In this document: positions 4,728-47,448 of the stretch, piece after piece
Numbering within the stretch: the stretch's first letter is position 1
Layout: each line of letters begins with the position of its first letter
Assembly (NCBI GenBank): GCA_029981435.1
Contig: JARRBB010000001.1
Coordinates: forward strand, 1,691 to 65,690
DNA length: 64,000 bases
Source: Thermotogaceae bacterium
Lineage (GTDB): Bacteria; Thermotogota; Thermotogae; B21-G9; HyVt-16
Reading direction: 5' to 3'
Program-made: the position numbers and the translations under genes
Notes under the pieces: model-generated
The model's input: the letters and a program-made list of their open reading frames with translations, nothing else
What the model was told of the DNA's origin: nothing
Database searches by the model: none

Positions 4728-4781
4728 GTTTTCTGTAATCTTGCTTTCGTGCTATCATTAAAAAGTCTGGAGGTGTTGGGA

Positions 4782-5057: not shown

Positions 5058-5101
5058 ACTTTTTAAGAGTTCAGAAAAAATAAATAAAGGGAGGGATTGA
5101 T

Positions 5102-7192: not shown

Positions 7193-7195
7193 TGT

Positions 7196-9826: not shown

Positions 9827-9832
9827 TGAAGG

Positions 9833-10114
9833 ATGACAGTAGGTGTTTTAAAGGTAACACTTAGACTATTTGGAATCAATTCTTTGAAAGAAAAAAGAAG
9901 TGTTATAAAGCATCTAATATCACAAATTTCAAATAAGTACAATGTATCAATTATAGAGAGTGATAATCAGGATTCCAAAGTCTGGGCTTCAATTGCAGTG
10001 GCAATGGTACGAAATTCTAAGGATCAGGTCGAAAAAACTATGGATTCTCTGGTTGATCTTATTGAAGAGCGTATGGGGATTGAAATATCCTCTGAAGAGA
10101 GAGAGGTGTATTGA
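9833..10114 (+). CDS. DUF503 (YlxP-like) protein
   Basis: 93 aa. The pattern L.V.L.L....SLKEKRSV...L......YNVS..E.D.QD..VWA.I.VA.V matches DUF503. Confidence 0.6.
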   Translation: MTVGVLKVTLRLFGINSLKEKRSVIKHLISQISNKYNVSIIESDNQDSKVWASIAVAMVRNSKDQVEKTMDSLVDLIEERMGIEISSEEREVY

Positions 10115-10117
10115 AAA

Positions 10118-23659: not shown

Positions 23660-24054
23660 TTCAGTTTCTCCAGCTTTTTAATTTCATTTTCGAGTGAGTA
23701 TTTTCCGAGCCTTTTATAAAAAATACTGCTGAACTTCTCTCCTTTTCGCGGTAACTTATCTATTATTTCAGATTCGTCTACCTCTCTCAGTATTGTCACT
23801 CCACCAGAGGTGCTTGCGATATACATATACTTTTCGGATAATTTCACAAGATATATTACTGTATTTCTGTCAAGAACAGCCCTCTCAATAAGAACTATAA
23901 GGTCGTTTTGACGAACTTTGAGAACGTATTTTTTTAACAAAAAATAGACCACCAAAAGTACTGATACTATCAAAACAAGTGATAATAAAAACGATAAATA
24001 CGTTCCCATCGCTCCGCTATAAGTAGGAGTTGAATTCAAATTTGAATACCTCAC
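23656..24054 (-). CDS. fliO: Flagellar biosynthesis protein FliO/FliZ
   Basis: Small single-transmembrane protein between cheY and fliP. The start could be GTG at 24054 (overlapping the cheY stop) or ATG at 24009. Confidence 0.55.
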   Translation of the reverse strand: MRYSNLNSTPTYSGAMGTYLSFLLSLVLIVSVLLVVYFLLKKYVLKVRQNDLIVLIERAVLDRNTVIYLVKLSEKYMYIASTSGGVTILREVDESEIIDKLPRKGEKFSSIFYKRLGKYSLENEIKKLEKLK

Positions 24055-24413
24055 TTAGAGAGTTTATTCAACGCTTCTACAACCCTTGGAGGTTGGAATG
24101 GCTTTACAATGAAATCTTTTGCACCAGCTTGAATTGCTTCAACAACCATGGCTTGTTGTCCCATAGCACTACAGACAACGATTTTGGCATCGGGATCTAT
24201 TTCCTTTATTTTTTTTATAGCGGTTATTCCATCCATTTCTGGCATCGTTATATCCATAGTCACGATGTCCGGTTGCAATTCTTTATACTTTTCGACTGCC
24301 TCAGCACCGTTTGCGGCTTCACCAACCACCTCATATCCTGCTTTTGTGACTATATCTTTTAACAACATTCTCATAAATGCCGCATCGTCGACTATAAGAA
24401 CCTTCTTGCCCAT
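24051..24413 (-). CDS. cheY: Chemotaxis response regulator CheY
   Basis: 120-aa receiver domain with LIVDD, DITMPEMDG, and K at the expected position. Confidence 0.9.
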   Translation of the reverse strand: MGKKVLIVDDAAFMRMLLKDIVTKAGYEVVGEAANGAEAVEKYKELQPDIVTMDITMPEMDGITAIKKIKEIDPDAKIVVCSAMGQQAMVVEAIQAGAKDFIVKPFQPPRVVEALNKLSK

Positions 24414-24433
24414 TTTTTGAACCTCCTCTGTTT

Positions 24434-24871
24434 TTAGATTTCTATGATTTTTTCAGCATCGAGATATAATATCAATCTGTTTTTATATTTTATTATCCCC
24501 TTGGTTTTTTTATTCACATCCTCTGAATTAAGAGGTTTGTCTATAGATTCTTTTGTTATCCTTATAACTTCTTTTACGTTATTAACCAAAAAACCAACTT
24601 CTATATCCTTTACTTTTAAAACCAGTATCTTGCTCTGATCGCTGTTGTTCTCTATATCCAAAAGTGCAGAAAGATCGATAACCGTTACGATCCTTCCCCT
24701 TAAATTCATAACCCCTTTTACAAAGTACGGTGCTTTCGGGACATAAGTTATATCAGGACGTTCTATAACCATTTCGACAAAATCAACATCAATGGCGAAA
24801 TCTCTGTTTGAAAGTTCAAAATCCAGAACTTCGAGTATATCTTCAAGCACTATATTTTCTTCATCTGGCAT
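24434..24871 (-). CDS. cheW: Chemotaxis coupling protein CheW
   Basis: 145 aa with CheW-like motif VMNLRGRIVTVIDL. Confidence 0.85.
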   Translation of the reverse strand: MPDEENIVLEDILEVLDFELSNRDFAIDVDFVEMVIERPDITYVPKAPYFVKGVMNLRGRIVTVIDLSALLDIENNSDQSKILVLKVKDIEVGFLVNNVKEVIRITKESIDKPLNSEDVNKKTKGIIKYKNRLILYLDAEKIIEI

Positions 24872-24883
24872 TTTTTACACCTC

Positions 24884-26950
24884 CTACAGACTGGCGACTA
24901 TATTCGGAACATCGAGAATCAACGCTATACTTCCATCACCGAGTATAGCTCCACCACTGAATTCCTTTATATTTTTCAACATCTTTCCAAGGGATTTTAT
25001 AACTATATCGTCCTGCCCAAGTAATCCATCAACCATCAGGCCATATTTCCTTGAACCACTCTGAACGATTACAACATTCAACACATTTTTATCGGATTTC
25101 TGAACCGGTAATCCAAAAAGTTCTTTCAGATTTATCAGAGGTATTATTTCTCCTCTTATGTATATAACAGGCTTCTTTTCGACTATCTTCACTTCATCAT
25201 CTTTGATACTCAAAGTTTCTTCGACATTCACCAGAGGAATTGCGTAGACGAAATCTTCTACTGTAACGAGTAAAGCCTGAATTATGGCAAGTGTTAAGGG
25301 GAATTTTATGGTTACTTTTGTACCTTGATCTTTAATGCTTTCGATCTGCACTGAACCATTCAAAGTTTCAATAGTCGATTTTACAACATCCATTCCGACA
25401 CCCCGACCTGAAACATCAGATACATTTTCAGCGGTTGAAAAACCCGGTTCAAAAATCAAAGAAAATACCTTTTCATCAGTCATAGAAGAAGCGCTTACTT
25501 CATCGATCAGACCTCTTTCAACAGCTTTTTTTAGAATTTTGTCTCTATCGAGCCCTCTACCGTCATCAGAAACTTCTATCACAACGTTGTTGCCTTCATG
25601 ATGAGCATCCAGACGCACCGTACCAATTGGTGGCTTGCCTTTTGCCAATCTTTCATCTTTGCTCTCGATGCCATGATCTATGGCGTTTCGTAAGAGATGT
25701 AACAATGGATCACCGATTTCATCAACCACAGTTCTGTCCAATTCTGTTTCCTGACCGGTTATAACCAGATTTATTTCCTTGTTCAACTTTTTGGAAAGAT
25801 CTCTGACCATTCTTGGAAATCTGTTAAACACAAAGGCTATTGGAACCATTCTGATCTTCATAACAATGTTCTGAAGATCCAGAGTTATTCTACTGAGATG
25901 CGCAAGACTTTCATCTATCTCCTTTATTTGATACTTCTTCAGGGTTTCCATTATTCTGCTTCTTGAAATAACAAGCTCTCCCATGAGGTTCATTAAGGTA
26001 TCCAGTTTATCTATATCCACTCTTATCGTTTGGGTTATCTTTGTTCCAAAAGATGCGGGCTGCGAACTTTCTTTACTTTTTGAAACAGGAGTTTTCTGTG
26101 AAGAAGTTTTCTTTACCTCAGATTCTGGTTCAATCTCTTCGGAAGGTGAAATATCGATTTTTAAATTCTGAGGATTTATTTCTATAACATTCACTTCAGC
26201 AATTTCTGATATATCTTTTATAATTTCCGCAAGTTTTTCTTTTGATATCTTACATACGACTACCAGTTCAACTGTTCTATCAAATTTTTCATTTTCTATA
26301 TCTTCAACTGACGGAATACTCTTGAGAACTTCTCCACCTAATTCTTCTATTTTATGAAAAACCACGTACATCCTCGCAGATTTTAACATTGTTCCTTCTT
26401 GCAACTTTATTTTCAAATAGAATGCATTGAAATCTTTTTCTCTGGCCTCTTTAAGAACGTTGACAACAGATTCTTCAATTGTGATAGGAATTGATAGAAC
26501 CTCTTCAGATATTTTCTCGGCACTTGTTTTTTCTTCTTTCACATGTTCGCTCTCTTTAGTAGACTCCCCACTTACTTTTGAGTAAAAAGTTTCATAGATC
26601 TCTAAAAGTTCAGACGAATCAATCTCATCGTTGCCTTCATCAAGAATCTTCTGAAGCATTCTTTCAAGCGTGTCTACACCTGCAAACAACGCATCCATTA
26701 TTTCCGAATCGACAGAAGCTCTATGATTTCTGAACAAGTCGAAGATATTTTCCATTTTATGGCTCAACTTTGCCATATTTTCAAAACCCATTGTGGCAGA
26801 CATTCCTTTTAGAGTATGAAGAGCTCTGAATATTTCATTTATTGCTTCAATATCTTCGGGATTATTTTCAAGTGCCAGCATTTTTTCATTCAATTGTTGA
26901 AGATATTCTCTGGTTTCTTCAACAAAGACGCTGAGATACTGCTCGTTCAT
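24884..26950 (-). CDS. cheA: Chemotaxis histidine kinase CheA
   Basis: 688 aa with Hpt ([12 protein letters not shown]), dimerisation domain, HATPase ([25 protein letters not shown]) and a C-terminal CheW-like domain. Confidence 0.95.
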
Positions 26951-26992: not shown

Positions 26993-28066
26993 TTATTTAT
27001 CATCCTGCGATGTTCTTCGCTTTATTTTTCCTATTCCATCTATTATTGCAAGGGCTCTTTTTTCACCTATTCCCTCAACATTTTTGAGATCGTCAAGTTT
27101 TGCATGACTTATTCCTTGAAGGCTTTTGAAAGTTTTTACAACGTTCATGACTATACTTGACGGTATTCTTGGAATTCTGTTTAGAACGCGGAAGCCCTTT
27201 GGATGAACAACAATATCGGAGATAGTGCTTGGAGAAACATCGTATCCAAGAACTTTAGCGATTTGAGAGTAGTTCATAAGGTCTTTGTCATCCATGTTGA
27301 ACATTTTCGCTTCTATTTCTTTCGCATCGTCTATATCCAAATCTTCAGAAAGGTAATCAAGTATCAAAAAGTGTATAAGATCTTCCAGTTCAGAGGTCAT
27401 CTCTTCAAGCTGTATTTTTGCCAGTCTTCCTTCCACACCAAGTTCAGTTATAAACCATTCAAGCTCTGTTTTAATCTGGTATTCTTTCAAAGCTTTTTCA
27501 AATATTCTGCATATATCATACAGGGTAACCTTATCTTCGAGTTCCAAAACATCCAGTTCAAATAACAATTTATCCAAGGCTTCTTTATATTTCTCTAAAG
27601 CTCTCAATCCTTGATTAACCTTGGTTATTACGAAGTTGACATCGTTGATCATATACCTCATATTTTTGTAATAAAGTGTTATAACCTTTCGGCGTCTTGA
27701 AATGGCTATAGCTGTACCATTGGTCTGTTGAGCGAATCTTTCAGCTGTACGGTGTCTTGTACCGGTTTCCTGTGTTGGAATGGATGGGTCTGTTATTATA
27801 TGTGCGTTTGCCTTTAGAATCCTCGAGACATCGTTTTTCAAAACTATTGCACCGTCCATTTTGGCTAATTCATAAAGTTTTTCGGGAGTAAAAACAGTAT
27901 CTATATCGAATCCACCTTGTATCATATTTTCAAAGTTTTGAAGCTCATCGACAAACACGATCAGAGCACCATTGTTGGCCATCAATATATCGTCGATACC
28001 TTTTCTCAAAAGCGTTCCAGGAGAAACCATTTGAAGTTTTTCAAGAAGTTCTTTGTTTATTTTCAT
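26993..28066 (-). CDS. disA: DNA integrity scanning protein DisA (diadenylate cyclase)
   Basis: 357 aa with DAC domain (DGAIVL...TGTRHRTAERF) and a C-terminal HhH region. Sits downstream of radA as in Firmicutes. Confidence 0.9.
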   Translation of the reverse strand: MKINKELLEKLQMVSPGTLLRKGIDDILMANNGALIVFVDELQNFENMIQGGFDIDTVFTPEKLYELAKMDGAIVLKNDVSRILKANAHIITDPSIPTQETGTRHRTAERFAQQTNGTAIAISRRRKVITLYYKNMRYMINDVNFVITKVNQGLRALEKYKEALDKLLFELDVLELEDKVTLYDICRIFEKALKEYQIKTELEWFITELGVEGRLAKIQLEEMTSELEDLIHFLILDYLSEDLDIDDAKEIEAKMFNMDDKDLMNYSQIAKVLGYDVSPSTISDIVVHPKGFRVLNRIPRIPSSIVMNVVKTFKSLQGISHAKLDDLKNVEGIGEKRALAIIDGIGKIKRRTSQDDK

Positions 28067-28078
28067 ATTCCCACTCCC

Positions 28079-29407
28079 CTAAGTTAACTCTTTTAAGACA
28101 TCTGAAAGGCTACTGTATTGAATCAATTCAAGATTTTTTATCTTTTTTGCATCTTTATCGTATGGCATTACTACTTTCTTGAATCCCATTTTATGGGCTT
28201 CCATAAGTCTCTTTTCGATATTATTAACCTTCCTGATTCTTCCATCGAGACCTATTTCACCTATATAAATGCAATCGCTGTCAATTTTTATATCGGCAAA
28301 AGCTGAATATACAGCAACAGCAATACCAAGGTCTATAGAAGGATCCTTTACATTGAGACCTCCAACTACATTAACGTATATATCGAAAGATTCTAAAGGT
28401 ATATTCAGTCTTCTACTCAGTACAGCCGAAATGAATACTATTCTTCCTATGTCTATTCCTTTGGATAATCTTCTTGGAGATGGGAAAAAAGTTTTGGATA
28501 CCAAAGATTGTATTTCAAGAAAAATATTTCTCGTTCCTTCCAAAGCTGAAGTTATACAACTTCCTGATGACAAATTATTTCGCTCTATGAAAATTTCAGA
28601 TGGATTTTTTACTTCTTTCAATCCATCATTTCTCATTTCAAAAATGGCAATTTCATTGGATGGTCCAAATCTATTTTTGATACTTCTTAAAATTCGATAT
28701 CCTGTTTGAATCTCACCTTCGAAGTACAGGACAACATCTACTAAGTGTTCCAAAAGCTTCGGACCGGCTATTTGTCCTTCTTTTGTTATATGTCCAACTA
28801 TAAAAATAGGAATCCCTGTACTTTTTGCATACCTCACAAGCGCTTCCGTACAGTCTCTTAACTGGACGACACTTCCGGGAAGTCCCACGTTCGATAATCT
28901 CATAGATTGGATGGAATCTACTATAATTGCTACAGGTTTTTCGGAATTCAGTGCAGCAAGTACCCCTTCTAAATCTGAAGTAGAAGTTACTTTCAAACTA
29001 CTGTTTTTCTTTACACCTATTCTTAAAGCTCTTAAAAGAATTTGTTCTTCTGATTCTTCTCCTGTTATGTAAAAAACCTCTCCGAATCTGGAGAGGTTTT
29101 CTGCTATCTCTAACATCAGAGTACTTTTACCAACTCCTGGATCTCCCCCAATTAATAAGACGCTTCCGGGGACGATTCCACCGCCAACCAGTCTATCGAA
29201 CTCTGATATATTTGTCTTTAACCTTCTAAACTCATCAATTTTTATTTGTTCAACACTTTTGAATGTAACAGAACTACTTTTGAGATTGTTGTAATCACTT
29301 TTTTTTTCAAAAGCCGTATTCCATTCGTTGCAAATTGGGCATTTTCCAAACCATTTTGGAGATTCATAGCCACAATTGCTGCATACATATATCTGTTTTT
29401 CTTTCAA
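28079..29407 (-). CDS. radA: DNA repair protein RadA/Sms
   Basis: N-terminal C4 zinc finger (CSNCGYESPKWFGKCPICNEW), Walker A GDPGVGKST, KNRFG motif, and a Lon-like C-terminal domain. Confidence 0.95.
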   Translation of the reverse strand: MKEKQIYVCSNCGYESPKWFGKCPICNEWNTAFEKKSDYNNLKSSSVTFKSVEQIKIDEFRRLKTNISEFDRLVGGGIVPGSVLLIGGDPGVGKSTLMLEIAENLSRFGEVFYITGEESEEQILLRALRIGVKKNSSLKVTSTSDLEGVLAALNSEKPVAIIVDSIQSMRLSNVGLPGSVVQLRDCTEALVRYAKSTGIPIFIVGHITKEGQIAGPKLLEHLVDVVLYFEGEIQTGYRILRSIKNRFGPSNEIAIFEMRNDGLKEVKNPSEIFIERNNLSSGSCITSALEGTRNIFLEIQSLVSKTFFPSPRRLSKGIDIGRIVFISAVLSRRLNIPLESFDIYVNVVGGLNVKDPSIDLGIAVAVYSAFADIKIDSDCIYIGEIGLDGRIRKVNNIEKRLMEAHKMGFKKVVMPYDKDAKKIKNLELIQYSSLSDVLKELT

Positions 29408-31863
29408 ACTTTATCACCAACTTTTTTCTTTTCCTCCTTTTTTCTGAAAACTATCTGACCGTTTCTCGCTGAAATCGCGATTTTATCTCCCTCTTTGAAA
29501 CTACCTTTGAGAATCTCTTCTGCCAGAGGATCTTCGAGATATTTTTGCAAAGCTCTTTTTAGAGGCCTTGCACCATATATTGGATCGAACCCTTTGTTTA
29601 TAAGAAGTTCCTTGGCACTCGCGGTTAAATGTATGCTGATTCTTTTTTCTGAGAGTCTCTTCATTATATCGTTTACCTGTATATCGATTATCTGTGCCAT
29701 GTGTTCTCTGTTCAATGGATGGAAAACGATTATTTCATCAATTCTGTTCAAAAATTCCGGCCTGAATAGTTTTTTTACTTCTCCCATAACCACGTCTCTC
29801 ATTTCCTGGTAATCTTTTTCTTCATTCTCAGATCCTACAAAACCAAGGGTTTTTTTACTCTTGTTTATCAGTTCTCCACCAAGATTACTGGTCATTATGA
29901 TTATTGTGTTTCTGAAATCCACAACCCTACCCTGTGAATCGGTCAATCGCCCATCATCGAGTATCTGAAGCAGAATATTGAAAACATCTGGGTGAGCTTT
30001 TTCAATTTCATCTAACAATATCACTGAAAATGGTCTTCTTCTAACCTTTTCAGTTAAGACACCACCTTCTTCATAGCCTACATATCCCGGAGGTGCTCCG
30101 ATGAGTCTTGAAACAGCGAACCTTTCCATATATTCGCTCATATCAATTCTTATCAGTGCGTTTTCATCACCGAACAGATAGGATGCAAGAACTTTTGCTA
30201 ATTCAGTTTTTCCAACACCTGTAGGGCCAAGAAATACGAAAGAACCCACAGGTCTTCTCGGGTCTTTTAAACCGCTCCTTGCTCTTCTGATCGCTTTAGA
30301 AATAGCTTCGATAGCTTCGTTCTGCCCAACGATTCTTTGATGCAGTACTTCTTCAAGTTTTAAAAGTTTCTGAGTCTCTGTTTCTTCAAGTTTTGTGAGT
30401 GGTATTCCAGTCCATTTGGAAACTACTTCGGCAATTTCTTCAACGCCTATTGTGATGAACTTGTTTTCAACTTCTTTCTTCCACTCAAGATACTCATTTC
30501 TGAGCAAAGATTCTATCCTTTTTTCTTCTTCTCTAAGAATCGCGGCTTTTTCATAATCTTGATTTATAGCAAGAAGCTCTTTTTCTTCTCTGATTGACCT
30601 GAGTTTCTCTTCGATTTCTTTGATATAATCTGGAAGCGTTAGCAATTTCTGTCTAATTCTTGCACCAGCTTCATCTATAACATCTATAGCTTTATCCGGT
30701 AAAAAATGATCGGATATATATCTTTTGGAAAGTTGAATGGCTGCCCAAAGAGCATCATCAGTGTATTTCACTTTGTGATGGGTTTCATATTTCAACCTCA
30801 AACCTTTAAGTATGGCAAAAGTTTCCTCTTCGGTAGGTTCGTTAACAAGTACTTTCTGGAATCTTCTTTCAAGTGCTGCATCTTTTTCAATATACTTTCT
30901 GTACTCATCTGGCGTCGTTGCACCGATACATCTCAGTTCTCCTCTGGCCAGAGGTGGTTTTAAAATATTTGCAGCATCAACGGCACCCTCTGCTGCACCT
31001 GCACCAACTATCGTATGAATTTCATCTATGAACAGTATTATGCTTTTATCTTTTGTTACAAGCTGTATCAATTTTTTTAGACGTTTTTCAAATTCACCTC
31101 TGTACTTTGTTCCAGCAACCAGAGCCGCTATATCAAGTGAGAATATCACATTGTTTTTGAGTGTCTCTGGTACTTTTCCTTCAACGATTCTTTGAGCTAA
31201 TCCCTCTACTATCGCAGTTTTACCAACACCGGGCTCGCCAATCAATACAGGATTGTTTTTCTTTCTTCTACTAAGTATCTGTATCATTCTTTCAATTTCG
31301 TCTTCTCTACCTATCACAGGGTCGAGTTTTCCTTGCTTGGCAAGATCGGTTAAATCTACACCAAACCCTTCAAGTTGTTTGACAGTCACATTGGAATTTA
31401 TCTGACCAAAAGTGTATTCACTCTCTTGAGGAGTGATGGCATCAAGCAGTTCTTTTTTCAACTCTCCGAGATCCACTCCCAATCTTTTAAGGATGTTTGC
31501 GGCTATTCCTTCACCTTCTTTTACTATTCCAAGAAGCACATGTTCAGCCGTTATATATGATTGACCAAGAAGCTTGGCTTCGTCGTAAGCCAGCTCAATT
31601 ATTTTTCTTGCTCTTGGAGTCATTTGCGGAGATTTTGTTACACGGTCTGGCGAACCCATACCAACCAGGGCTATTATTTCATTTTTGACATTGTTATAAT
31701 TAACTCCAAAATCAGTTATCACCTCAAAAGCTGGTCCACTTCCAAGCTTCAGTATTCCCAGCAAGAAATGCTCAGTTCCTACGTACGAATGTCCGAGTTT
31801 CTTCGCTTCTTCTTGTGCTGCCAGCAGTACCTGAACAGCTCTTTCAGAAAATTTATCGTACAT
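29404..31863 (-). CDS. clpC: ATP-dependent Clp protease ATP-binding subunit ClpC
   Basis: 819 aa with two Clp_N repeats, two AAA+ modules ([18 protein letters not shown]) and a UVR-like linker. Confidence 0.92.
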
Positions 31864-31865
31864 AT

Positions 31866-32513
31866 TTATACACCTCCTAATGTAAACAGACTCAAAAGTG
31901 CTATCGTGTTGTTCAAAGAGTGTAGTGTTATCGGTACCAATAAATTAGAACGAATTTCGTAGAAATAGTTCATCAAAATACTCAACATTAGTATCACTGG
32001 AAATGTTTCAAGAGAATGAAACAAAGCGAATATAAGCGATGTTATTATTATTGATACCTCAACTCTCATAAAATTTTTTAAAAAATTATACACCATTCCT
32101 CTGAAAATTAACTCTTCGGTTATCGGGCCTAAAAATATTGCAACGACAACGAAAAGAATCTTTTGTGAATTATCAAGATTTTTTATGTTAACCCCAACAT
32201 AGTTACTGTCATTCACTGGAAAAAGTAATCCCAGAATCAACAAACTTATGAACAAAATTGGGAACACTTTCAAAGACCAGAGAAAATCTTTTAAAAAATT
32301 TTCCCTTTTAAACCAACTTGACAGTAGGTTTCTACGTCTGGTTATTATCAGTACTATTGTCAAAGAATAGATATACCATATTAATGATACTGTCCCCAAA
32401 TATCTGGAATTAATTTCAACATTCTTTTCAAAGAATACTATGGTAATGAGAAATAAGAACAGAATCTCAAGTGAAATAAAAATCAAGATGTCCCTTATTT
32501 TCAATTTATTCAA
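31866..32513 (-). CDS. CPBP-family intramembrane metalloprotease (CAAX protease-like)
   Basis: Polytopic membrane protein with EELIFRG and FALFH motifs. Confidence 0.75.
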   Translation of the reverse strand: MNKLKIRDILIFISLEILFLFLITIVFFEKNVEINSRYLGTVSLIWYIYSLTIVLIITRRRNLLSSWFKRENFLKDFLWSLKVFPILFISLLILGLLFPVNDSNYVGVNIKNLDNSQKILFVVVAIFLGPITEELIFRGMVYNFLKNFMRVEVSIIITSLIFALFHSLETFPVILMLSILMNYFYEIRSNLLVPITLHSLNNTIALLSLFTLGGV

Positions 32514-32550
32514 AAAATTCCCTCCAATTAGATTATAACATTAAAAATTT

Positions 32551-34542
32551 TCAATCAAGTTTAGTTCCCTTTAACTCAAGTATTTTGTCCCTCAGTTTTG
32601 CAGCATCTTCATATCTAAGTTCGCTTGCCGCTTTATACATTTCTTCTTCAAGCAAAGATATATAGTCATTTATATCAAGATTTTCTCCTAATTTCAATAT
32701 CGTTTCAACTTCTTCTGAAAGTTCTTCATAGTTTTCAGATTCTTTAACTCTGAATTGTGCAAAAATATCTTCGTCGAGTGGTTTCACAATACTTTTTGGA
32801 GTTATGTTGTATTTGAGATTGTATTCCATTTGCTTTTTTCTGCGTCGATTGGTTTCATCAATGGCTTGCTTCATAGCTCCGGTGATCTTATCAGCGTATA
32901 AAATCACCTTACCGTTGACATTTCTCGCTGCTCTTCCTATTGTCTGTATCAATGTTGTTTCAGAGCGTAAAAATCCCTCTGCATCGGCGTCTAAAATAGC
33001 CACAAGAGAAACTTCAGGTAAGTCCAGTCCTTCTCTTAAAAGATTCACACCCACCACCACATCTATTTGCCCACTTCTGAGTTTTCTAAGAACCTCAACT
33101 CTTTCAACTGAACCAAGTTCCGAATGCAGGTAAAGAGCTCTTATTCCCATTTCTCTGAAGTAATCTGCGAGTCTTTCAGCCATATTTTTGGTCAGGGTTG
33201 TAACCAGAGCTTTTTCATTTCTGGACCTCACGATTCTTATTTCTTCGAGTAAATCGTCAATCTGGTTTTCAGTTGGTTTCAAGACTACTTCTGGATCAAC
33301 CAATCCTGTTGGTCTGATAAGTTGCTCGACTATCTGTTCAGAAACTTCGTATTCGTAGTCTCCAGGAGTTGCAGAAACAAATATTATTTGTCCAACTTTA
33401 CTTAGAAATTCCTCGAATGTAAGAGGCCTATTGTCGTATGCACAGGGCAATCTAAAGCCGTATTCTACAAGATTTTTCTTTCTTGATCTATCTCCACGAT
33501 GCATTGCATTCAGTTGAGGAACGGTTATATGAGACTCGTCTATAAAAACCAGTAAATCTTTATCGAAATAGTCAAGCAAAGTCCAGGGCGCCTCTCCAGG
33601 TTTTCTACCGTCAAAATGTCTTGAATAATTTTCAATTCCACTACAGTATCCAAGTTCTGAAAGCATCTCAATATCCTGAAGAGTACGTTGCTCCAACCTT
33701 TGGGCTTCCAGCAATTTTCCATGTTTTCTGAAATAGATGAGCTGTTCCCTTAATTCTTCTTGAATGGATTCAATGGCAGCTGCTATTTTTTCGTCGGTAG
33801 TTATATATTCTTTTGCAGGATAGATAACTATTTTATCATATTCTTCGATGATCGTTCTGTTCAGGGGATCAAAAGAAAGAATCTTTTCCACTTCATCGTC
33901 AAAGAACTCAATTCTTATACCTGTATCTTCATAAGAAGGAATTATCTCTAAAATTTCACCTCTCAATCTAAAGGTACCACTCTTTGAGAGATCTTCCATT
34001 CTTTCATACTGCATCTTTGCGAGCTTTTTCAATAGTTCTTTTCGTTTTATTTCTTCTCCAACAGATAACTTCAAATTCAACGATTCAAAATCGTTAGGAT
34101 CTCCAGATGCATAAATACACGAAACACTTGCTACAACTATTACATCACGCCTGGTCAAGACAGATTTAAGAGTCGATAACCGCATACGCATTATTATATC
34201 GTTTATATCGGCATTTTTTTCTATATATAAATCTTTTGAAGGGACGTAGGCTTCTGGTTGGTAATAATCGTAATAACTTATAAAAAATTCCACGCGATTT
34301 TCTGGAAAAAAAGTTTTGAATTCTTTATAAAGCTGCGCTGCTAAGGTTTTATTGGGGGATATAACAAGAGTTGGTCTTTGCAGTTTTTCAATCACATTTG
34401 CCATAGTGAAGGTTTTGCCAGAACCTGTAACACCAAGCAGAGTCTGAAATCTGTATCCTCTTTTAACACCTTCCACCAGCCTGTTGATAGCTTCTGGCTG
34501 GTCTCCCATTGGAACCATTTCACTTATGAGTTTGAATTTCAC
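32551..34542 (-). CDS. uvrB: Excinuclease ABC subunit B
   Basis: 663 aa with helicase motifs ([12 protein letters not shown]), beta-hairpin region, and a C-terminal UVR domain. Confidence 0.97.
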
Positions 34543-40555: not shown

Positions 40556-40969
40556 CTAAACACCACGCCTTCGATAACTTTCGTCTATGGCGGTAGAAGA
40601 TATTATGGAAAATATAACCCCTGTTAAAAAACCAATGATGCTAAAAAATGCATCAAAGAAATTTCCATCTCTGTAAGGAAGTTTTTCCTGATAAAATTCA
40701 TCGATCACCGGGAAAATTATGAAAAACACGAAAAACAGGCCATATATTACTCGAGAAGTTTTTTTGGAGTTCCTGAAAAACGAGAAATAGAGCAATACAC
40801 TTCCTATCATATAAACGAAAAAATGCCAAAGCTTGTCTTCATTAAGGAAGCGATTGTAATTGAAAGGTTGATTTGGAGTTACCGAAAAATAAATCAAAAT
40901 ACCCACGTAAATAAAGAAAAAGAGTTTCAGAAAGATTTTGCTTTTACTTCTACTCATCGATGTATTCAT
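40556..40969 (-). CDS. VanZ-family membrane protein
   Basis: Four transmembrane segments with a DKLWHF...DEFYQ...P.R pattern. Confidence 0.6.
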   Translation of the reverse strand: MNTSMSRSKSKIFLKLFFFIYVGILIYFSVTPNQPFNYNRFLNEDKLWHFFVYMIGSVLLYFSFFRNSKKTSRVIYGLFFVFFIIFPVIDEFYQEKLPYRDGNFFDAFFSIIGFLTGVIFSIISSTAIDESYRRRGV

Positions 40970-41441: not shown

Positions 41442-42510
41442 CTCCTTTCAAGAAAACCTTCTCCACATAATCCGATGTCATACACCTTAACAAAGCACTG
41501 TAATTGAGTAAAAAAGACATTTTGTCACCAATTTTATAGTCAATACTGGATTCGTTAATATCAACAATCAAATGATCGCTACTGGCATGGAGAATCCTTG
41601 CTTTTTCGTCGAGAGGATAAATACCTTTTGAGTCAATGTCCTGTTCTCCTATTGCGAGTATTGCACGTTTAATTTTTCCTTTATCTTCAAATTTTGGGAT
41701 TCTTCCCAGGGAATCTCTTCCAGTTTCTCCTAAAGGAACAGAAGGTTTTACTTTGATTTCAACGATTTCTGCTTCCAGGATAAAGGTTTCTCTGTTTAAG
41801 TAATCTATGATTCTGTTGTTTGTTGCGTCAGTTCCAAGCATTATTGCTTCTCCTATTCTGTATTGGTTTATTTCTTCAGGAAGTTCGTTTCTCTCTATAA
41901 GTGGAAGAGCCGCGGTATTACCAGCGGAAACTATTTTTACTTTTACTCCATTATTTTCAAGAAACCTTTTGATCTCTATGAGTTGCTCCATTTTTTCTCT
42001 GGTTGGTATTACCCCTCCATAACATCCGAGATTTGTACCGATTCCTACAAATTCTATACCTTCCAATTTACTGGCTTCGATTATTTCATCCAGACTATCT
42101 TCAAGCCAAACACCTTCTCTCAAATCGCCTATATCTATCATGTATATGACTTGTTTCTTTAAACCTGCGGATTTAGAAAATCTGGAGATGGCTTCCACTA
42201 CTTTGAATTCTGATACCAGGAAAATATCCACCAATTGAACAGCTTCTTCAATTTCACTGAGCATTGGAATCCTCAAAAGCATGAATCTACTTTCAACACC
42301 CGCTTCTTTCATTAATTTTATGTTTTTCAATCTCGAATCACCGAGTATTTTTATTCCGGAATCTACAAGAAGTTTTGCTATAACTGGATTACCACAGGTT
42401 ACTTTGGTTACACCAACAACTTCTACTCCAAATTTTGAACAGATGGAAACGATAGACCTTACATTTTCTCTTATCTTGTTGAGATTTATTATCAATCTTG
42501 GATATCTCAT
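41425..42510 (-). CDS. Alanine-racemase-fold PLP enzyme, putative broad-specificity/lysine racemase (TM1597-like)
   Basis: 361 aa with the TIM-barrel PLP-binding pattern of alanine racemase N-terminal domain proteins. The size and pattern match the Thermotoga lysine racemase family. Confidence 0.55.
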   Translation of the reverse strand: MRYPRLIINLNKIRENVRSIVSICSKFGVEVVGVTKVTCGNPVIAKLLVDSGIKILGDSRLKNIKLMKEAGVESRFMLLRIPMLSEIEEAVQLVDIFLVSEFKVVEAISRFSKSAGLKKQVIYMIDIGDLREGVWLEDSLDEIIEASKLEGIEFVGIGTNLGCYGGVIPTREKMEQLIEIKRFLENNGVKVKIVSAGNTAALPLIERNELPEEINQYRIGEAIMLGTDATNNRIIDYLNRETFILEAEIVEIKVKPSVPLGETGRDSLGRIPKFEDKGKIKRAILAIGEQDIDSKGIYPLDEKARILHASSDHLIVDINESSIDYKIGDKMSFLLNYSALLRCMTSDYVEKVFLKGDDPSG

Positions 42511-42872
42511 TTTTCAACTACCACCACCGCTACAGCATAATTTTTTTCATGAGTTATTGATATATGAAAATTCGAAAGTCCCAGTTGTTCCATTAAAGTT
42601 TTTGAATCACCTTGAATCAATATTTCAGGGTTCCCCATCTCTTTATCGTAAACAATCTGTACTTCTTTAAAAGAGATTTTTCCAATTCCTAATTTTAACG
42701 CTTTGAAAAAAGCTTCTTTTGCCGCGAATCTTCCAGCAAGAAATTCCTTTTTTCTATCAGGTTTTTTTAATTCATGATAAATTTGAAGTTCCTTTTCACC
42801 GAGTATCTTTTTAGATAATTCAAAATCTACTCTGCTTATATCAACTATATCGATTCCAATACCATAAATCAT
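42507..42872 (-). CDS. acpS: Holo-[acyl-carrier-protein] synthase
   Basis: 121 aa beginning MIYGIGIDIVDISR. Confidence 0.9.
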   Translation of the reverse strand: MIYGIGIDIVDISRVDFELSKKILGEKELQIYHELKKPDRKKEFLAGRFAAKEAFFKALKLGIGKISFKEVQIVYDKEMGNPEILIQGDSKTLMEQLGLSNFHISITHEKNYAVAVVVVEK

Positions 42873-42876
42873 ATTA

Positions 42877-44964
42877 TTACCTCAGTTCCAAAGTTACTTC
42901 ATCTCCAGGATTCAACGGATCCATAAATCCAACATGAACACCATTAACTTTTATTTCAAAGTCTTTCAAACCATCGATATCAAGATCCAGGAACCTGAAA
43001 ATGTCTACGACCTTTGGCTGAATTTCAACAGTTTTAATATCGATAACCGCTCCTTCTTCTAAAGGTGCATCTAAATCCGCTCTTTTACCGTTTACAAGTA
43101 TTTCGTACTCTACAACGGGTATCGACACTTCTTCACCATTTATGGTTATTTTGACAACTTTTGAATTCTTTTGAAATCTTGAATCTTCTATAATGTCTCT
43201 TATTCTTTTTTCTCTTTTTTCGATTTTTATATCCAGATTATCGGCTAAAACTACATCTGGTGCGAGTTTTTTTCCGTTGAGATATACTTCAACATCGTAC
43301 AGAGGAATTTCCTTTATTTCGCCATTTATCGTTAGAGTGACGGTCTGCTTTGAATATTCAGCTATTATTTCACTCACTTTTAAACTTTTTTCATAGGTGA
43401 TTCTGTCGTTATCCCTTACAACATAATCCAGATTTTCTTGTTTACCATTAACGTACACCTCTGGATAAAACTCTTTTAACTCACCGTTCACTGTTAGTTT
43501 TATAGGTTCGATCACATCTTTCAATTTAAGTGATGGTGGCAGTCCATTTTCAGGCTTTCCAATTTCAATAATATCACCATTATTCACTATTGTACGCAGA
43601 GAGGCTCTTTCCTTGTTGACGAAAACAGGGGCCTCCTTGCCAAGACTACCTTTTCTGACAACGACCTCACCATTGACGTTGAAAGTTATGCCAGGACCAG
43701 GCTTACCGATTAATTCTTCTATTTTGTAACCAAGTTGAAGTAATGCTTGCAGTACTGTCATAGAAGGATCGAGTCCCAACAGGTAAACATCTTTGTCGTT
43801 AACGGTAACCTTTGTGAATATTCTTGCAATTCCTTTACTACAGGTATAGGCTATTCCAACCGGTGTGATAAATTCACTACCTTTCAAAGAACCTGTTGAA
43901 TCCTCTACTATATGAAGATCTTCAATATTTTTCAGTGCTACTCTACTTCTTGGAAGGCCAAGTTTTTGTGACAATCTTTCAGCGAATCCTGGTATTTTAG
44001 CACCACCACCCACAATCATTACAGCAGCGGGAGGTTTGCCATTTAATTCCATGATTTGTTCGACTATTTCTGTGACGATGTCTTCCAGAACGGGTGATAT
44101 TGATTTCAAGATTTCTTCTTTTGATATTTTCAATTCATTACCAAGAATGTCTCTTACCGTGAATTCATCTTTCACATTCAATTCTCTTTTTACAGATTCT
44201 GCACTGTTAAAGTCCAAAAGAAAATCAGAGCTTATTTTTTCACTTATCTCATCACCAGCTTTGGGTACCATACCGTAGGCAATTATAGTACCATCTCTCG
44301 AAACAGCTATATCACTTGTCCCTGCTCCAACATCAACGAGGACCAAATTCAATCTTCTCAAATCAATGGGAACGGTAAGTTCAACAGCTGCGATGGGTTC
44401 TAAAGTCATGTGTTCGATTTCCAGACCAACGCTTTCAATGACAGCAAACATTGCATCAACAACGTGTGAAGGTAAGAAAGCCGCTATAACTTTTACTTCT
44501 GCTCTTCTACCTCTCTGATCCAGTAAACTTTTCATCCATTCACCGTCAAGAAAATAATGCAGTACAGAATATCCAACACAGTACATATCAAGATCTTCTG
44601 AATATTGTCTCATCTCTTCAATAGCGTTTTTTACAGCACCCATTTCAAGGTTTGAAATAACATCTTGGTCTATTCTTCTGTAATGTGAAACATCCATTTG
44701 GTTGTGCCCTACAACTGTTTTCAAAAATCTTCCTGCAAGAGCGACGGAGACTTTCTTAAGTTCCTGATTCGAACGTTTTTCAAGTTCTTTCTTGATTTCA
44801 TCAACCACCTCAGCAACTTTTCTTATATCGTGAATCTGTCCATCGAGCATCGCACGTTCTTTGTGTTCTTTTACTTCGAAATCCAGAACTTTTATTCTTT
44901 CACCTTCGAGCTCTGTTAGCAGTCCAATAACCGTTCTGGTACCTATATCAAGGGCAAAATGCAC
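42877..44964 (-). CDS. Actin-fold (FtsA/PilM/EutJ-like) ATPase fused to about five tandem ThiS/MoaD-like beta-grasp repeats
   Basis: 695 aa. The N-terminal roughly 390 aa carry sugar-kinase/actin motifs (ALDIGTRTVIGL, VLVDVGAGTSDIAV, MIVGGGAKIPG). The C-terminal roughly 300 aa consist of repeats, each like ..[ILV]T[IV]NGE.KE....V.VNGK....D.[VL]..D.D.I.I, for example TLTINGEIKEIPLYDVEVYLNGKKLAPDVVLADNLDIKIEK. This is the ThiS/MoaD signature. Confidence 0.6.
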   Translation of the reverse strand: MHFALDIGTRTVIGLLTELEGERIKVLDFEVKEHKERAMLDGQIHDIRKVAEVVDEIKKELEKRSNQELKKVSVALAGRFLKTVVGHNQMDVSHYRRIDQDVISNLEMGAVKNAIEEMRQYSEDLDMYCVGYSVLHYFLDGEWMKSLLDQRGRRAEVKVIAAFLPSHVVDAMFAVIESVGLEIEHMTLEPIAAVELTVPIDLRRLNLVLVDVGAGTSDIAVSRDGTIIAYGMVPKAGDEISEKISSDFLLDFNSAESVKRELNVKDEFTVRDILGNELKISKEEILKSISPVLEDIVTEIVEQIMELNGKPPAAVMIVGGGAKIPGFAERLSQKLGLPRSRVALKNIEDLHIVEDSTGSLKGSEFITPVGIAYTCSKGIARIFTKVTVNDKDVYLLGLDPSMTVLQALLQLGYKIEELIGKPGPGITFNVNGEVVVRKGSLGKEAPVFVNKERASLRTIVNNGDIIEIGKPENGLPPSLKLKDVIEPIKLTVNGELKEFYPEVYVNGKQENLDYVVRDNDRITYEKSLKVSEIIAEYSKQTVTLTINGEIKEIPLYDVEVYLNGKKLAPDVVLADNLDIKIEKREKRIRDIIEDSRFQKNSKVVKITINGEEVSIPVVEYEILVNGKRADLDAPLEEGAVIDIKTVEIQPKVVDIFRFLDLDIDGLKDFEIKVNGVHVGFMDPLNPGDEVTLELR

Positions 44965-44994
44965 TATTCATCACCTCTACATAAGCTTAAAAAC

Positions 44995-47310
44995 TCACTT
45001 AACCTCAACTATCGTAGCCCCTGTTCCACCCGCTTCTGGTGGTGCAAATTTAAAACTTCTAACTCTCGGGTCATTAACAAGGATTTCTCTAACCCGTTTC
45101 GCCAGCCTCAAAGTTCCTTTCCCGTGAATTATGTATCCTACATTTATATTGTTCAGAACCAGGTTATCTATGAACCTCTCGATAATATCTTCAATCTCGT
45201 CGGTTGACATTCCTCTAATGTCTATTTCTAACTTTTCTTTTGCTCTGGTGATACCTATCTTTGTCTTGTCGAATTCCGATATTTCACCGTTTACTTTTTC
45301 AAGCTTATCGATAGTTGTTTCAAATTTAATACCATTTATATCAACAATTGCTTTTTTGTCTTCCAGTTCTATTATTTTTCCTGTACTAGTTGTATTGATT
45401 ATTCTCACAAAATCTCCTGTTTTAAAATTTTTGAGCTCTTCATCTGTTCTGCCCAACAATTTGTCTCTTAAATTATCTACGAATCTTGGAGATATTTTTT
45501 GTATCTCTCTGTTTAATTTTTCCAATTCTTGAAGATTCTGAATTCTCCGTGCTTTTGAAACTGAGTTTTCTAAAAATTTTTTCACCATTTGAATTTTTGA
45601 AGCCAGTTCGTCTATCTCTTTTAGGAGCTCGTGAGTTTTGTTTCTCTTTAATTTCTCAATCTGTTTATTCAGATTCTCATTTTTTATTTCTAATTCTTCT
45701 TTAAGAGATTCTATTTCTTGTTTTTTTCTCTCAAGCTTTATCTTTTCTGTCTGGAGTTCATGAATTATAGAGTCGATGTTCTTGAGTTTGTTATCCATAT
45801 ACTTTTTTGAAGCCCGGAGTATTTCTTGGGGTATGCCGAGCCTTTTAGCAATTTCAATAGCTTGAGAACTTCCTGCTACTCCCATCATTATCCTGTAAGT
45901 AGGTTTCAAAGTTTCAATATCGAATTCTACCGCAGCGTTTACAAGTCTTGTATCTTCAAAAGCATAAAGTTTCAAAGGTGTAAGATGTGTTGTCACAATG
46001 ATCCTGGATTTTTTATTCAGGAAGTAGTTGATTATTGCAATTGCAAGCGCGGCTCCTTCAACAGGGTCTGTACCAGCACCGATTTCATCTATAAGAATCA
46101 GAGTTTTATCGTTGGCTATTTTCAACATTTCTATTATTTTCAGCATATGTGACGAAAAAGTACTCAAACTCTGTTCAATACTCTGTTCGTCGCCTATGTC
46201 CGCTTTCACATTCTCGAAAATCGATAGAACAGAACCTGGATCACAAGGAACAGGTATGCCGGCCATAAACATCAAAGTTAGCAGTCCCACCGTTTTCAAT
46301 GCCACGGTTTTTCCGCCTGTGTTGGGACCTGTAATGATTATTCCGTATTTATTCTTTTCAAGTTCAATACTTATTGGAACCACTTTCTTTTCGTCTATTA
46401 AAGGGTGTCTTGCGTTCACAAGTTTTATTATTCCTTCTGAATTGATCTCCGGTATCACCGCTCTTTTCTTTATTCCATACCGTGCACGTGCGTATAAAGA
46501 ATCAAAATATGAAATACTTTCAATCGTATAGATTATCTTCTTTTCTTTTTCTACAAGTAATTGCAGAACTTCTCTTATTATTCTTCTTTCTTCTTCCTTT
46601 TCATCGATTTCAAGCTGTCTTAATTTGTTGTTCAAGTCTATTATTTCTTCAGGTTCTATGTAAAGGGTCATGCCTGAGGATGAACTTGAAACCAACATAC
46701 CTTTAACTTCTTTACGTCTGGATGATTTAACCAGAAATATATATCTACCGTCTCTTTGGATGAAAGGTGGTTCTTGAAGAGAGTCTCTATATTTTCTGGA
46801 GAGTCTTTCAGCGAGATTCTTCAGGGATGAAATTGTTTTTTCAATCTCGTTTCTTATTTCTTTCAATCTTGGACTTGCAGAATTTTTTATAATACCGTCT
46901 TCATTTATACAGCTCGTTACTTTTTTGCAGAAATGATTTGCTTCCTCAACATCAGATAAAATACTCCAAATTTTGGGGTATTTGTTGCTCAGCTTTTCAT
47001 AAAATTTTTTCAGAGCATGAATAGCCAGAAAAAAATCACGAATTTTTAATATTTCGATAGGAGATAATAAAAACCCCTGGAATACTTTTTCAAATTGTTC
47101 TTTGAGATAGACAATACCACCGAGAGGTGGTTCACCATCGTATTGAAGTGCTTCAATCAGTTCTTGCACCTTTGAAAGCTCCTGTTCGGGTTTATAAGTT
47201 GGTAGTAATTTTTCAAGATATTCTTTTCCGTAATCCGAAAAACAGAAAGGTTTGATCAATTCTATAACTTTTTTATATTCAAGAACCTCTAAATCCATAT
47301 TCAATTCCAT
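44995..47310 (-). CDS. mutS2: Endonuclease MutS2 (MutS domains plus C-terminal Smr)
   Basis: Walker A GPNTGGKT and a C-terminal Smr domain (HGKGTLRLAKRV). I moved the start to ATG 47310 (MELNMDLEV) behind RBS AGGAGAG; the track ORF extends to 47355. Confidence 0.9.
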   Translation of the reverse strand: MELNMDLEVLEYKKVIELIKPFCFSDYGKEYLEKLLPTYKPEQELSKVQELIEALQYDGEPPLGGIVYLKEQFEKVFQGFLLSPIEILKIRDFFLAIHALKKFYEKLSNKYPKIWSILSDVEEANHFCKKVTSCINEDGIIKNSASPRLKEIRNEIEKTISSLKNLAERLSRKYRDSLQEPPFIQRDGRYIFLVKSSRRKEVKGMLVSSSSSGMTLYIEPEEIIDLNNKLRQLEIDEKEEERRIIREVLQLLVEKEKKIIYTIESISYFDSLYARARYGIKKRAVIPEINSEGIIKLVNARHPLIDEKKVVPISIELEKNKYGIIITGPNTGGKTVALKTVGLLTLMFMAGIPVPCDPGSVLSIFENVKADIGDEQSIEQSLSTFSSHMLKIIEMLKIANDKTLILIDEIGAGTDPVEGAALAIAIINYFLNKKSRIIVTTHLTPLKLYAFEDTRLVNAAVEFDIETLKPTYRIMMGVAGSSQAIEIAKRLGIPQEILRASKKYMDNKLKNIDSIIHELQTEKIKLERKKQEIESLKEELEIKNENLNKQIEKLKRNKTHELLKEIDELASKIQMVKKFLENSVSKARRIQNLQELEKLNREIQKISPRFVDNLRDKLLGRTDEELKNFKTGDFVRIINTTSTGKIIELEDKKAIVDINGIKFETTIDKLEKVNGEISEFDKTKIGITRAKEKLEIDIRGMSTDEIEDIIERFIDNLVLNNINVGYIIHGKGTLRLAKRVREILVNDPRVRSFKFAPPEAGGTGATIVEVK

Positions 47311-47448
47311 CGGGTTTTCTCTCCTGTAGACATTAATGTATAATAATTGTATCATACTGATTTAGTGTATACTGTTCAGAAACTATTTTAGGAATGATAT
47401 CAACGATAATAGAATTTTTCATTGAAAACAACTTTGGGAGGTCAAAAC

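Follow-up and report, generated by a model that had tools for sequence, protein, structure and literature searches.

The window analyzed here (64,000 nucleotides) encodes a 695-aa protein that, as read from its sequence, is a cytoplasmic paralogue of FtsA and PilM with all of its ATP-binding motifs intact, and whose C-terminal region (aa 380 to 695) is a genuine internal repeat of five domains with the β-grasp fold. This architecture recurs in over 500 clusters of proteins, taken at 50% identity, and its carriers are the Thermotogota, many Bacillota (Brevibacillus and Cytobacillus firmus among them), Omnitrophota, and, in the archaea, the genus Methanolobus. In lineages other than the Thermotogota, relatives are embedded in chemotaxis operons, a setting that points to an accessory function in chemosensing and away from cell division or sulfur transfer.

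The gene starts with GTG (Table 1), and its product is 100% identical to a 695-aa entry of the public collection (P0001). A first-pass annotation of the window placed the gene between acpS and mutS2, and both neighbors were confirmed. Since no terminator-like site separates the FtsA-like gene from acpS, the two are, judging from the nucleotide sequence, probably co-transcribed.

Table 1. Features of the FtsA-like gene, its product, and its immediate neighbors (positions within the window)
Feature	Position	Strand	Basis or remarks
mutS2 (MutS_V + Smr)	44995..47355	-	Pfam; same strand, 30 nt upstream of the FtsA-like gene
Shine-Dalgarno AGAGGTGA	44971..44978	-	6 nt upstream of the GTG start; sequence read directly
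FtsA-like ATPase + five β-grasp domains	42877..44964	-	ORF, 695 aa plus stop
Actin-fold ATPase, FtsA-type subdomains 1A/1C/2A/2B, aa 1-375	43840..44964	-	Pfam, TIGR01174, Foldseek
Phosphate-1 motif DIGT, aa 6-9	44938..44949	-	D6, G8, T9 invariant or at least 90% conserved
Phosphate-2 motif DVGAGTSD, aa 211-218	44311..44334	-	D211, G213, G215, T216, D218 invariant (110 diverse sequences)
Adenosine motif GGGA, aa 319-322	43999..44010	-	G319, G320 invariant; G321 at least 90%
Domain 1 (hairpin h0 + helix A1 + strands t1), aa 380-474	43543..43827	-	DSSP of AF2 models, couplings (386-460, 387-465, 388-466, 418-468), ThiS match
Hairpin h1, aa 425-439, between A1 and t1	within 43543..43827	-	assigned to domain 2
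Helix A2 + strands t2 (domain 2), aa 475-527	43384..43542	-	hhalign; couplings 428-522, 438-516, 481-522
Hairpin h2, aa 487-500 (domain 3)	inserted within 43384..43542 unit	-	
Helix A3 + strands t3 (domain 3), aa 528-586	43207..43383	-	hhalign; couplings 491-578/579, 533-573
Hairpin h3, aa 540-554 (domain 4)	inserted within 43207..43383 unit	-	
Helix A4 + strands t4 (domain 4), aa 587-649	43018..43206	-	hhalign; couplings 589-631, 554-597
Hairpin h4, aa 602-616 (domain 5)	inserted within 43018..43206 unit	-	
Helix A5 + strands t5, closing domain 5, aa 650-695 (no hairpin insert)	42880..43017	-	DSSP, hhalign; couplings 652-684, 656-684
acpS	42507..42872	-	start 4 nt past the stop of the FtsA-like gene

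The head of the protein had been read as an FtsA/PilM-type ATPase on the strength of three motifs, all of which are present and invariant, or nearly so, in the family. It matches the Pfam families FtsA, PilM_2, and MreB_Mbl above their respective cut-offs, and residues 4 to 346 align to positions 4 to 348 (of 371) of TIGR01174, the FtsA equivalog profile. The best Foldseek match of the AF2 model is likewise an FtsA structure (7q6f; TM 0.85, E 5e-28); across FtsA structures, target-normalized TM scores are 0.80 to 0.85 over ~390 aligned columns, and PilM ranks next. The proposal that this protein is not the canonical divisome FtsA stands: it scores 97.1 bits against the TIGR01174 cut-off of 175.85 (and 48 bits against 409 for PRK09472); the C-terminal membrane-targeting helix is missing, with aa 380 to 695 folded and the chain ending in a β-strand (E689-694, ...EVTLELR); and, among the neighbors annotated, neither ftsZ nor a dcw cluster adjoins the gene in any of 89 homologue contexts. 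For PilM, the PF11104 match reaches 41.7 bits in two stretches (cut-off 27) but the TIGR01175 score only 68 (versus 133), and no pilN, pilO, pilP, or pilQ neighbors exist in the window or in the Thermotogota, Bacillota, and Methanolobus loci. With the N-terminal domain as query, phmmer found no second actin-fold ORF in the window.

The tail, described at first pass as about five ThiS/MoaD-like modules, holds up under structure and profile comparison both as a repeat and as β-grasp, with a domain count of five. The repeat is supported by hhalign values of 97.8 to 99.5%, the AF2 models have pLDDT values of 92.6 and 86.4, and Foldseek matches the region to multi-ubiquitin, di-ubiquitin, ISG15, and TGS. 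A ThiS-family sequence signature accompanies the fold: domain 1, once de-interleaved (G1; see below), aligns to positions 1 to 69 of 76 in Pfam ThiS. Only the de-interleaved domain profile retrieved ThiS, MoaD, and SAMP, unlike a phmmer search of PDB sequences with the C-terminus, which gave no match at E ≤ 10.

These five domains appear to be interleaved, such that the β1-β2 hairpin of domain n+1 sits between the helix and β3 of domain n, a topology drawn indirectly from DSSP strings of the AF2 models, covariation (Neff of 231), and profile matches. By DSSP, the tail contains exactly five hairpins, five helices, and five three-strand units, arranged as h0 A1 h1 t1 A2 h2 t2 A3 h3 t3 A4 h4 t4 A5 t5, with h3 and t3, like h4 and t4, just one residue apart. 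In a mean-field DCA of 307 sequences (aligned by MAFFT in automatic mode), the strands of each unit k are coupled with helix k, and β5 of unit k is coupled with hairpin k-1 in the same register as in the undisputed h0-t1 pair. The pooled score for hairpin k-1 and unit k is 0.64, which 0.05% of random anchor sets attain; pairing of hairpin and strands inside the same unit does not rise above noise, 26% of random sets doing as well. The de-interleaved domain profile matches SAMP2, PF1061, MoaD, and ThiS with E values from 3e-6 to 2e-3, in alignments that take in hairpin, helix, and strands; because the contiguous-unit control profile A5 also matches MoaD (E 2e-5), this test supports interleaving without proving it. 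Single-sequence Pfam scans of de-interleaved domains and contiguous units are, apart from the G1/ThiS match, too weak to discriminate. In this arrangement, the peptide originally quoted as an example repeat (TLTINGEIKEIPLYDVEVYLNGKKL...) is not a single module: it consists of hairpin h3 plus strands t3, which covariation assigns to two domains. If real, the chaining of five ubiquitin-like domains by swapped hairpins would show a noteworthy way to make rigid rods out of small domains, and the interleaved poly-β-grasp rod would be a new design for a stiff multidomain spacer.

Family members are automatically annotated in databases as "FtsA," and it is through this misannotation that a large family has stayed hidden: hundreds of its proteins are labeled "cell division protein FtsA" yet fail the FtsA-defining tests. 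The initial statement that no such fusion had been described is borne out by the literature that was searched in full text, which yielded no published description of the fusion or of an FtsA-like che-operon gene; neither appears in the two Aravind-lab β-grasp surveys (PMC1779556 and PMC1949818), in a survey of cell division in Firmicutes (PMC8136486), or in the FESNov paper (PMC10849945). It fails for the databases, where the architecture is abundant and conserved, across Thermotogota (a question the annotation had raised) as well as in other phyla. Candidate stand-alone C-terminal modules, recovered as short matches, proved to be gene fragments starting inside the ATPase domain.

In all nine contexts from che-embedded clades (loci L020, L055, L081 to L085, L087, and L089, in sequence clades 5, 6 [L020], 1, and 3), the homologue lies inside a chemotaxis operon, beside CheA and a CheC-like gene. 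These lineages are Methanolobus, Omnitrophota, and another three clades defined by sequence; the gene order of the operon varies among them, and the homologue still adjoins CheA/CheC. In Methanolobus and Omnitrophota, the CheC-like neighbor is translationally coupled to it. Only L085 has, in addition, a separate PilM-PilO pair, which precedes the che operon. The 9 Thermotogota and ~65 Bacillota contexts all lack an adjacent che gene; an orphan CheR lies 0.6 to 2 kb upstream of the homologue in two Bacillota loci, and the window itself contains cheA-cheW-cheY ~16 kb from the FtsA-like gene. Adjacency to mutS2 is conserved in Thermotogota (tblastn on L001, L004 to L007, and L017) and missing outside that phylum. 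In Bacilli, the gene is solitary, flanked by divergent aroA-ccpA on one side and convergent ytxJ-ytxH-ytxG-murC on the other, with no conserved operon partner among recurrent neighbor clusters (Pfam). The che-operon context of the homologues had not featured in the first-pass annotation.

Because homologues are embedded in che operons beside CheA and a CheC-like gene, we consider the most likely job of this family to be that of a scaffold or adaptor that depends on ATP and serves the chemosensory machinery (probability, roughly 40%). In the Thermotogota genome, where the gene is probably transcribed together with mutS2 and acpS, the protein would act in trans on the system encoded by the distant cheA-cheW-cheY genes or have diverged in its role. 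By homology to FtsA and PilM, the head would bind ATP and self-associate, clamp short partner peptides, or both, and the tail, taking the place of FtsA's linker and membrane-targeting helix, would form a stiff, acidic, nonconjugatable rod that offers a protein-binding platform. Its possible jobs would include the organization or positioning of arrays and the holding of adaptation and phosphatase proteins, and the scaffold function suggested at the outset seems plausible. Motile Bacillus subtilis, with its CheC/CheD-type system, is not known to have a member of this family, and the family is thus excluded from the core components of chemotaxis. More doubtful is a wider proposition, namely that the family is an unrecognized ancient accessory of the CheC/CheD-type systems common to Bacillota, Thermotogota, Omnitrophota, and Methanolobus, in which a polymerizing or peptide-clamping FtsA-like ATPase would use its five-domain rod to organize arrays or to couple CheA, CheC, and CheR to a cellular structure. 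If the chemotaxis link holds, a cytoskeletal-type ATPase joins a signaling pathway usually regarded as fully catalogued, and a protein of the FtsA fold acquires a defined setting in archaea; the array-organizing reading, if true, would supply an actin-type counterpart of ParA-type array-positioning systems.

Further points speak against the chemosensory model: the Thermotogota and Bacillota contexts have no adjacent che gene, the chemotaxis role is transferred across ~35% identity, and the model offers no explanation for the conserved adjacency to mutS2 in Thermotogota.

The proximity of the head to FtsA, the closest structure (including T. maritima FtsA, 4a2a and 1e4f) and the best NCBIfam model, also fits a divisome-related paralogue that binds the FtsZ C-terminal peptide via subdomain 2B and modulates Z-ring assembly, its rod attaching to another division or envelope factor instead of the membrane. 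All carrier lineages, Methanolobus included, can be assumed to possess FtsZ, and in Bacilli murC lies ~1.5 kb downstream, but it is convergently oriented and belongs to an unrelated ytxGHJ block. The subthreshold FtsA score, the missing membrane-targeting helix, and the 89 contexts devoid of an adjacent ftsZ or dcw cluster, together with the several clades placed inside che operons, make this role unlikely.

We give still less weight to an RNA- or ribosome-associated factor. MutS2 is a ribosome-collision sensor in B. subtilis, and TGS-like β-grasps bind tRNA or rRNA, such that the Thermotogota mutS2 operon could represent shared translation quality control. The whole-protein TGS (PF02824) score is 39.7 against a cut-off of 22.2 but is summed over repeats, the best stretch (aa 623 to 645, in the domain 4 unit) covering only profile positions 38 to 60 of 60. 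Moreover, the de-interleaved profile matches SAMP, ThiS, and MoaD better than TGS, the tail is acidic (net charge of -11 in the query and a median of -9 in the family), and there is no mutS2 link outside Thermotogota. Compared with the TGS domains of RelA/SpoT, ThrRS, and DRG, only the β3-β5 third of the profile aligns, and RNA-related partner domains are missing.

An analogue of Hsp70-like chaperones, in which the nucleotide-binding domain would allosterically control a β-rich, client-binding C-terminal region, is very improbable: the two belong to the same superfamily, and the nucleotide-binding domain of DnaK is among the Foldseek matches (E 1e-13), but these matches are far weaker than those to FtsA and PilM, the tail is unlike the DnaK substrate-binding domain, and no co-chaperones are found among the neighbors. 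The least credible reading, the carrier-protein system raised at first pass, has the modules activated or released as sulfur carriers or ubiquitin-like tags, as their resemblance to ThiS, MoaD, and SAMP in sequence and fold and the Foldseek match with multi-ubiquitin proteins of bacteria (9cd2, E 9e-6) might invite, but it is not supported: four of the five domains are internal and the fifth ends in ...TLELR, Gly-Gly terminates only 1 of 307 relatives and is absent from the domain junctions of the query (sequence read directly), interleaving, if real, would keep a single cleavage from releasing any one domain, no ThiF/MoeB/E1, E2, JAB, ThiG/MoaE, or sulfurtransferase genes were found among the neighbors annotated by Pfam (window, homologue loci, and recurrent clusters), and PADLOC returned no defense-system match.

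Relative to known systems, the tail domains differ from ThiS, MoaD, and SAMP (PF02597; PDB 1F0Z, 1VJK, 4HRO, and 5LDA) in their five copies, in lacking both a C-terminal Gly-Gly and an E1-like partner, and in the apparent displacement of each hairpin into the helix-β3 loop of the preceding domain. The bacterial polyUbl proteins described by Iyer et al. (2006, PMC1779556) contain two to three domains, and their genes accompany E1/E2/JAB genes. Multi-ubiquitin and polyUbl structures (PDB 9CD2 and 9D5A) are the best Foldseek matches of the tail and share its tandem ubiquitin-like β-grasps in one chain, whereas here five domains are fused to an ATPase, conjugation genes are missing, and the global TM is only 0.16 to 0.23. 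Kinship with Bub-type multi-ubiquitin proteins was considered and rejected, the Foldseek similarity being at the level of the fold only.

With FtsA (PDB 4A2A, 1E4F, and 7Q6F), the head has in common the ATP motifs and a colinear actin fold that includes the FtsA-specific subdomain 1C (SHS2); the differences are an identity of only 15 to 21%, below the equivalog cut-off, a 320-aa β-grasp tail in place of the linker and amphipathic membrane helix, the lack of a dcw/ftsZ context, and the presence of the family in an archaeal genus, FtsA not being known from archaea. PilM (PDB 2YCH and 5EOU), the second-best structural and Pfam match (TM 0.64 to 0.77), is likewise a cytoplasmic actin-like ATPase without a membrane anchor of its own and clamps the N-terminal peptide of its partner, but it has no β-grasp tail, and its pilN and pilO partners are not beside the gene here. 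For the proposed chemosensory scaffold or adaptor, there is also a parallel of function only: ParC and PpfA, ParA-type ATPases encoded in che operons, position chemoreceptor arrays. The likeness lies in a cytoskeletal-type ATPase that self-associates and has its gene inside a chemotaxis operon. The folds are unrelated, ParC and PpfA having the P-loop ParA/MinD fold and the present family the actin fold, and array positioning by this family is conjectural.

The reading frame that the first-pass annotation had proposed is real and encodes 695 aa from a GTG start: an identical 695-aa protein is held in a public collection, homologues start at the same position, and a ribosome-binding site (AGAGGTGA) lies 6 nt upstream of the GTG. 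Upstream, mutS2 ends 30 nt before the gene, and acpS starts 4 nt after its stop. Because of this 4-nt spacing, the overlapping or abutting genes downstream of acpS, and the lack of a terminator-like site between the focal gene, acpS, and the following genes, the sequence likely encodes an operon running mutS2, focal gene, acpS, and onward. Elsewhere in the window, a 137-aa hydrophobic ORF without a Pfam match at E 1e-5 is conserved at the same position in the Thermotogota locus L001 (75% identity).

Positions of the genes and operons discussed
Feature	Source	Position	Strand
Focal gene	window	42877-44964	-
137-aa hydrophobic ORF	window	40556-40969	-
Motility/chemotaxis operon	window	22895-26950	-
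cheA	window	24884-26950	-
cheW	window	24434-24871	-
cheY	window	24051-24413	-
fliO	window	23656-24054	-
fliP	window	22895-23659	-
DNA-integrity and stress cluster	window	26993-34542	-
disA	window	26993-28066	-
radA/sms-like	window	28079-29407	-
clpC-like	window	29404-31863	-
uvrB	window	32551-34542	-
Orphan CheR	L010 (Clostridia MAG)	4510-5385	
Orphan CheR	L059 (Heliobacterium mobile)	2104-2964	
Homologue	L055 (Methanolobus)	5989-8112	
Homologue	L081 (Methanolobus)	8001-10121	
ComFB-family gene	L083	9526-9789	
ComFB-family gene	L085	9347-9592	

The best 120 matches, all from Thermotogota and 670 to 735 aa long, are named "cell division protein FtsA" or "FtsA domain-containing." When only the tail served as phmmer query, an exhaustive search returned 529 clusters (50% identity); almost all measure about 700 to 730 aa and carry the tail at a constant position (short matches are fragments). 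A species-level genome scan located over 574 loci, spread across Thermotogota and many Bacillota, including Brevibacillus, many Bacillaceae, Clostridia, Negativicutes, Halanaerobiales, Heliobacterium, and Syntrophomonadaceae. A second search added Candidatus Omnitrophota and, among archaea, the entire genus Methanolobus. The Methanolobus homologues are full-length and FtsA-fold; no FtsA is known from archaea. The fusion of an ATPase to beta-grasp domains is old, common, and unnamed: its supposed novelty stands insofar as no paper on it was found in the literature searched, but it is a large misannotated family rather than a rarity.

The head (aa 1 to 375) passes the Pfam cut-offs for FtsA, PilM_2, and MreB_Mbl. 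The closest structures to its AF2 model (pLDDT 86.4) are FtsA (Foldseek; TM 0.80 to 0.85, E down to 5e-28), that of T. maritima included, and the ATP motifs DIGT, DVGAGTSD, and GGGA vary little or not at all across 110 sequences of only about 35% identity. The head is an active-looking ATPase of the FtsA/PilM class. An FtsA paralogue that modulates the divisome is a doubtful reading.

The tail (aa 376 to 695) is confidently modeled by AF2 (pLDDT 92.6, pTM 0.67), and its top Foldseek matches are tandem-Ubl proteins, among them bacterial multi-ubiquitin (9cd2; E 9e-6), linear di-ubiquitin, ISG15, and talin F0F1. Its periodicity is genuine, since sub-alignments of the units match one another at 97.8 to 99.5% probability in profile-profile comparison; there is no repeat at the DNA level. 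The earlier reading of the architecture, an ATPase followed by four to five beta-grasp repeats, was essentially right. The whole protein, at 39.7 bits for TGS, exceeds the Pfam gathering cut-off only because partial b3-b5 matches of several repeats sum, and an automatic "TGS domain" label would mislead. It is improbable that the protein is an RNA or ribosome factor of TGS type with a link to MutS2.

Five b1-b2 hairpins (h), five helices (A), and five b3-b4-b5 strand sets (t) are present in the tail, but DSSP orders them h0 A1 h1 t1 A2 h2 t2 A3 h3 t3 A4 h4 t4 A5 t5 rather than in canonical h-A-t order. Since a single non-strand residue separates h3 from t3 and h4 from t4, neither pair can form a hairpin/crossover within one small domain. 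In a mean-field DCA of 307 family sequences (Neff 231), each helix couples to the strands of its own number in all five units. Hairpin h0 couples to t1 (386-460, 387-465, 388-466), and this register recurs in h1-t2 (428-522), h2-t3 (491-578/579), and h4-t5. Pooled, the four disputed hairpin-strand pairs peak at 0.64, a value attained by 0.05% of random anchor sets, versus 26% for same-unit pairing, which is at noise level. Joining h(k-1), A(k), and t(k) yields sequences with the classic ThiS signature, whose profile matches SAMP2, PF1061, MoaD, and ThiS (E 3e-6 to 2e-3) across hairpin, helix, and strands; a contiguous-unit control profile matched compact ThiS-like proteins more weakly, yet still matched MoaD. 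There are probably five beta-grasp domains, each of which lends its hairpin to the helix-b3 loop in the domain before it, and this should rigidify the chain.

Gene neighborhoods differ among lineages. In Thermotogota (the window, L001, L004 to L007, and L017), the gene immediately upstream of the homologue is mutS2; in Bacilli the gene stands alone, flanked by divergent aroA-ccpA and convergent ytxJ-ytxH-ytxG-murC. Elsewhere it is embedded in a chemotaxis operon. Such loci come from Methanolobus (L055, L081), Omnitrophota (L082, L084), bacteria without a label (L083, L085, L087, L089), and one MAG that bears the label Methylomirabilis (L020). These nine loci belong to four sequence clades at about 31 to 38% identity to the Thermotogota and Bacillota clades. 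In eight of them CheA and a CheC-like gene of roughly 200 aa come immediately before the homologue, at junctions that overlap or span 3 to 23 nt; in L087 the order is CheA, a REC-PAS gene, the homologue, and a CheC/X gene. This CheA/CheC adjacency is kept although che operon gene order varies among lineages. Two Bacillota loci have an orphan CheR 0.6 to 2 kb upstream of the homologue, outside any che operon. In the window itself, about 16 kb separate the focal gene from a cheA-cheW-cheY-fliO-fliP operon of the same strand. The window also encodes a DNA-integrity and stress cluster (disA, radA/sms-like, clpC-like, and uvrB) on the minus strand.

The Methanolobus operons, with the homologue inside, are ordered CheY-CheB-CheA-CheC-X-CheR-CheC-CheC-CheD, and Pfam CheW and CheF were not found in the stretch examined, save for the CheW-like domain of CheA itself. 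L020 (DYJU01000009.1) shares the CheY-CheB-CheA-CheC-X order, and its binning as Candidatus Methylomirabilis may deserve checking. In L083 and L085, a small ComFB-family gene separates the homologue from CheR, and the operon is closely preceded by genes for type IV pilin or PilM-PilO. In Methanolobus, L083/L085, L089, and L020, the CheC-like proteins encoded next to the homologue give higher scores with one another than with the other CheC paralogues of their own operons, which may point to a subfamily of dedicated partners; copies from Omnitrophota deviate from this pattern.

The family combines an intact ATP site on an FtsA-type fold with a tail of five acidic, non-conjugatable beta-grasps; it is conserved in several phyla, and several clades carry it within che operons. 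Judging from its homologues FtsA and PilM, the head may self-associate or clamp peptides in an ATP-dependent manner. The tail could serve as a stiff protein-binding rod, and the family would act as a scaffold or adaptor of chemosensory machinery. For the window protein we put this role at about 40%, because it is transferred from other clades. An Hsp70-like chaperone is very improbable; DnaK ranks behind FtsA, PilM, EutJ, and MreB among structural matches to the head. The carrier-protein system once suggested, whether Ubl or sulfur carrier, is rejected: the protein ends in ...TLELR, only 1 of 307 relatives ends in GG, the acidic tail has a net charge of -11 (family median -9), no E1, JAB, ThiF, MoeB, ThiG, or MoaE was found among annotated neighbor genes, and PADLOC gave no match.

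Two points merit follow-up: the proposed rod of interleaved beta-grasps and the gene context linked to CheA and CheC. Compared with FtsA itself, the head is colinear with the NCBIfam equivalog over residues 4 to 346, yet its 97 bits stay below the cut-off of 175.85. The protein is not an orthologue of FtsA, and it lacks the C-terminal membrane helix that FtsA carries.
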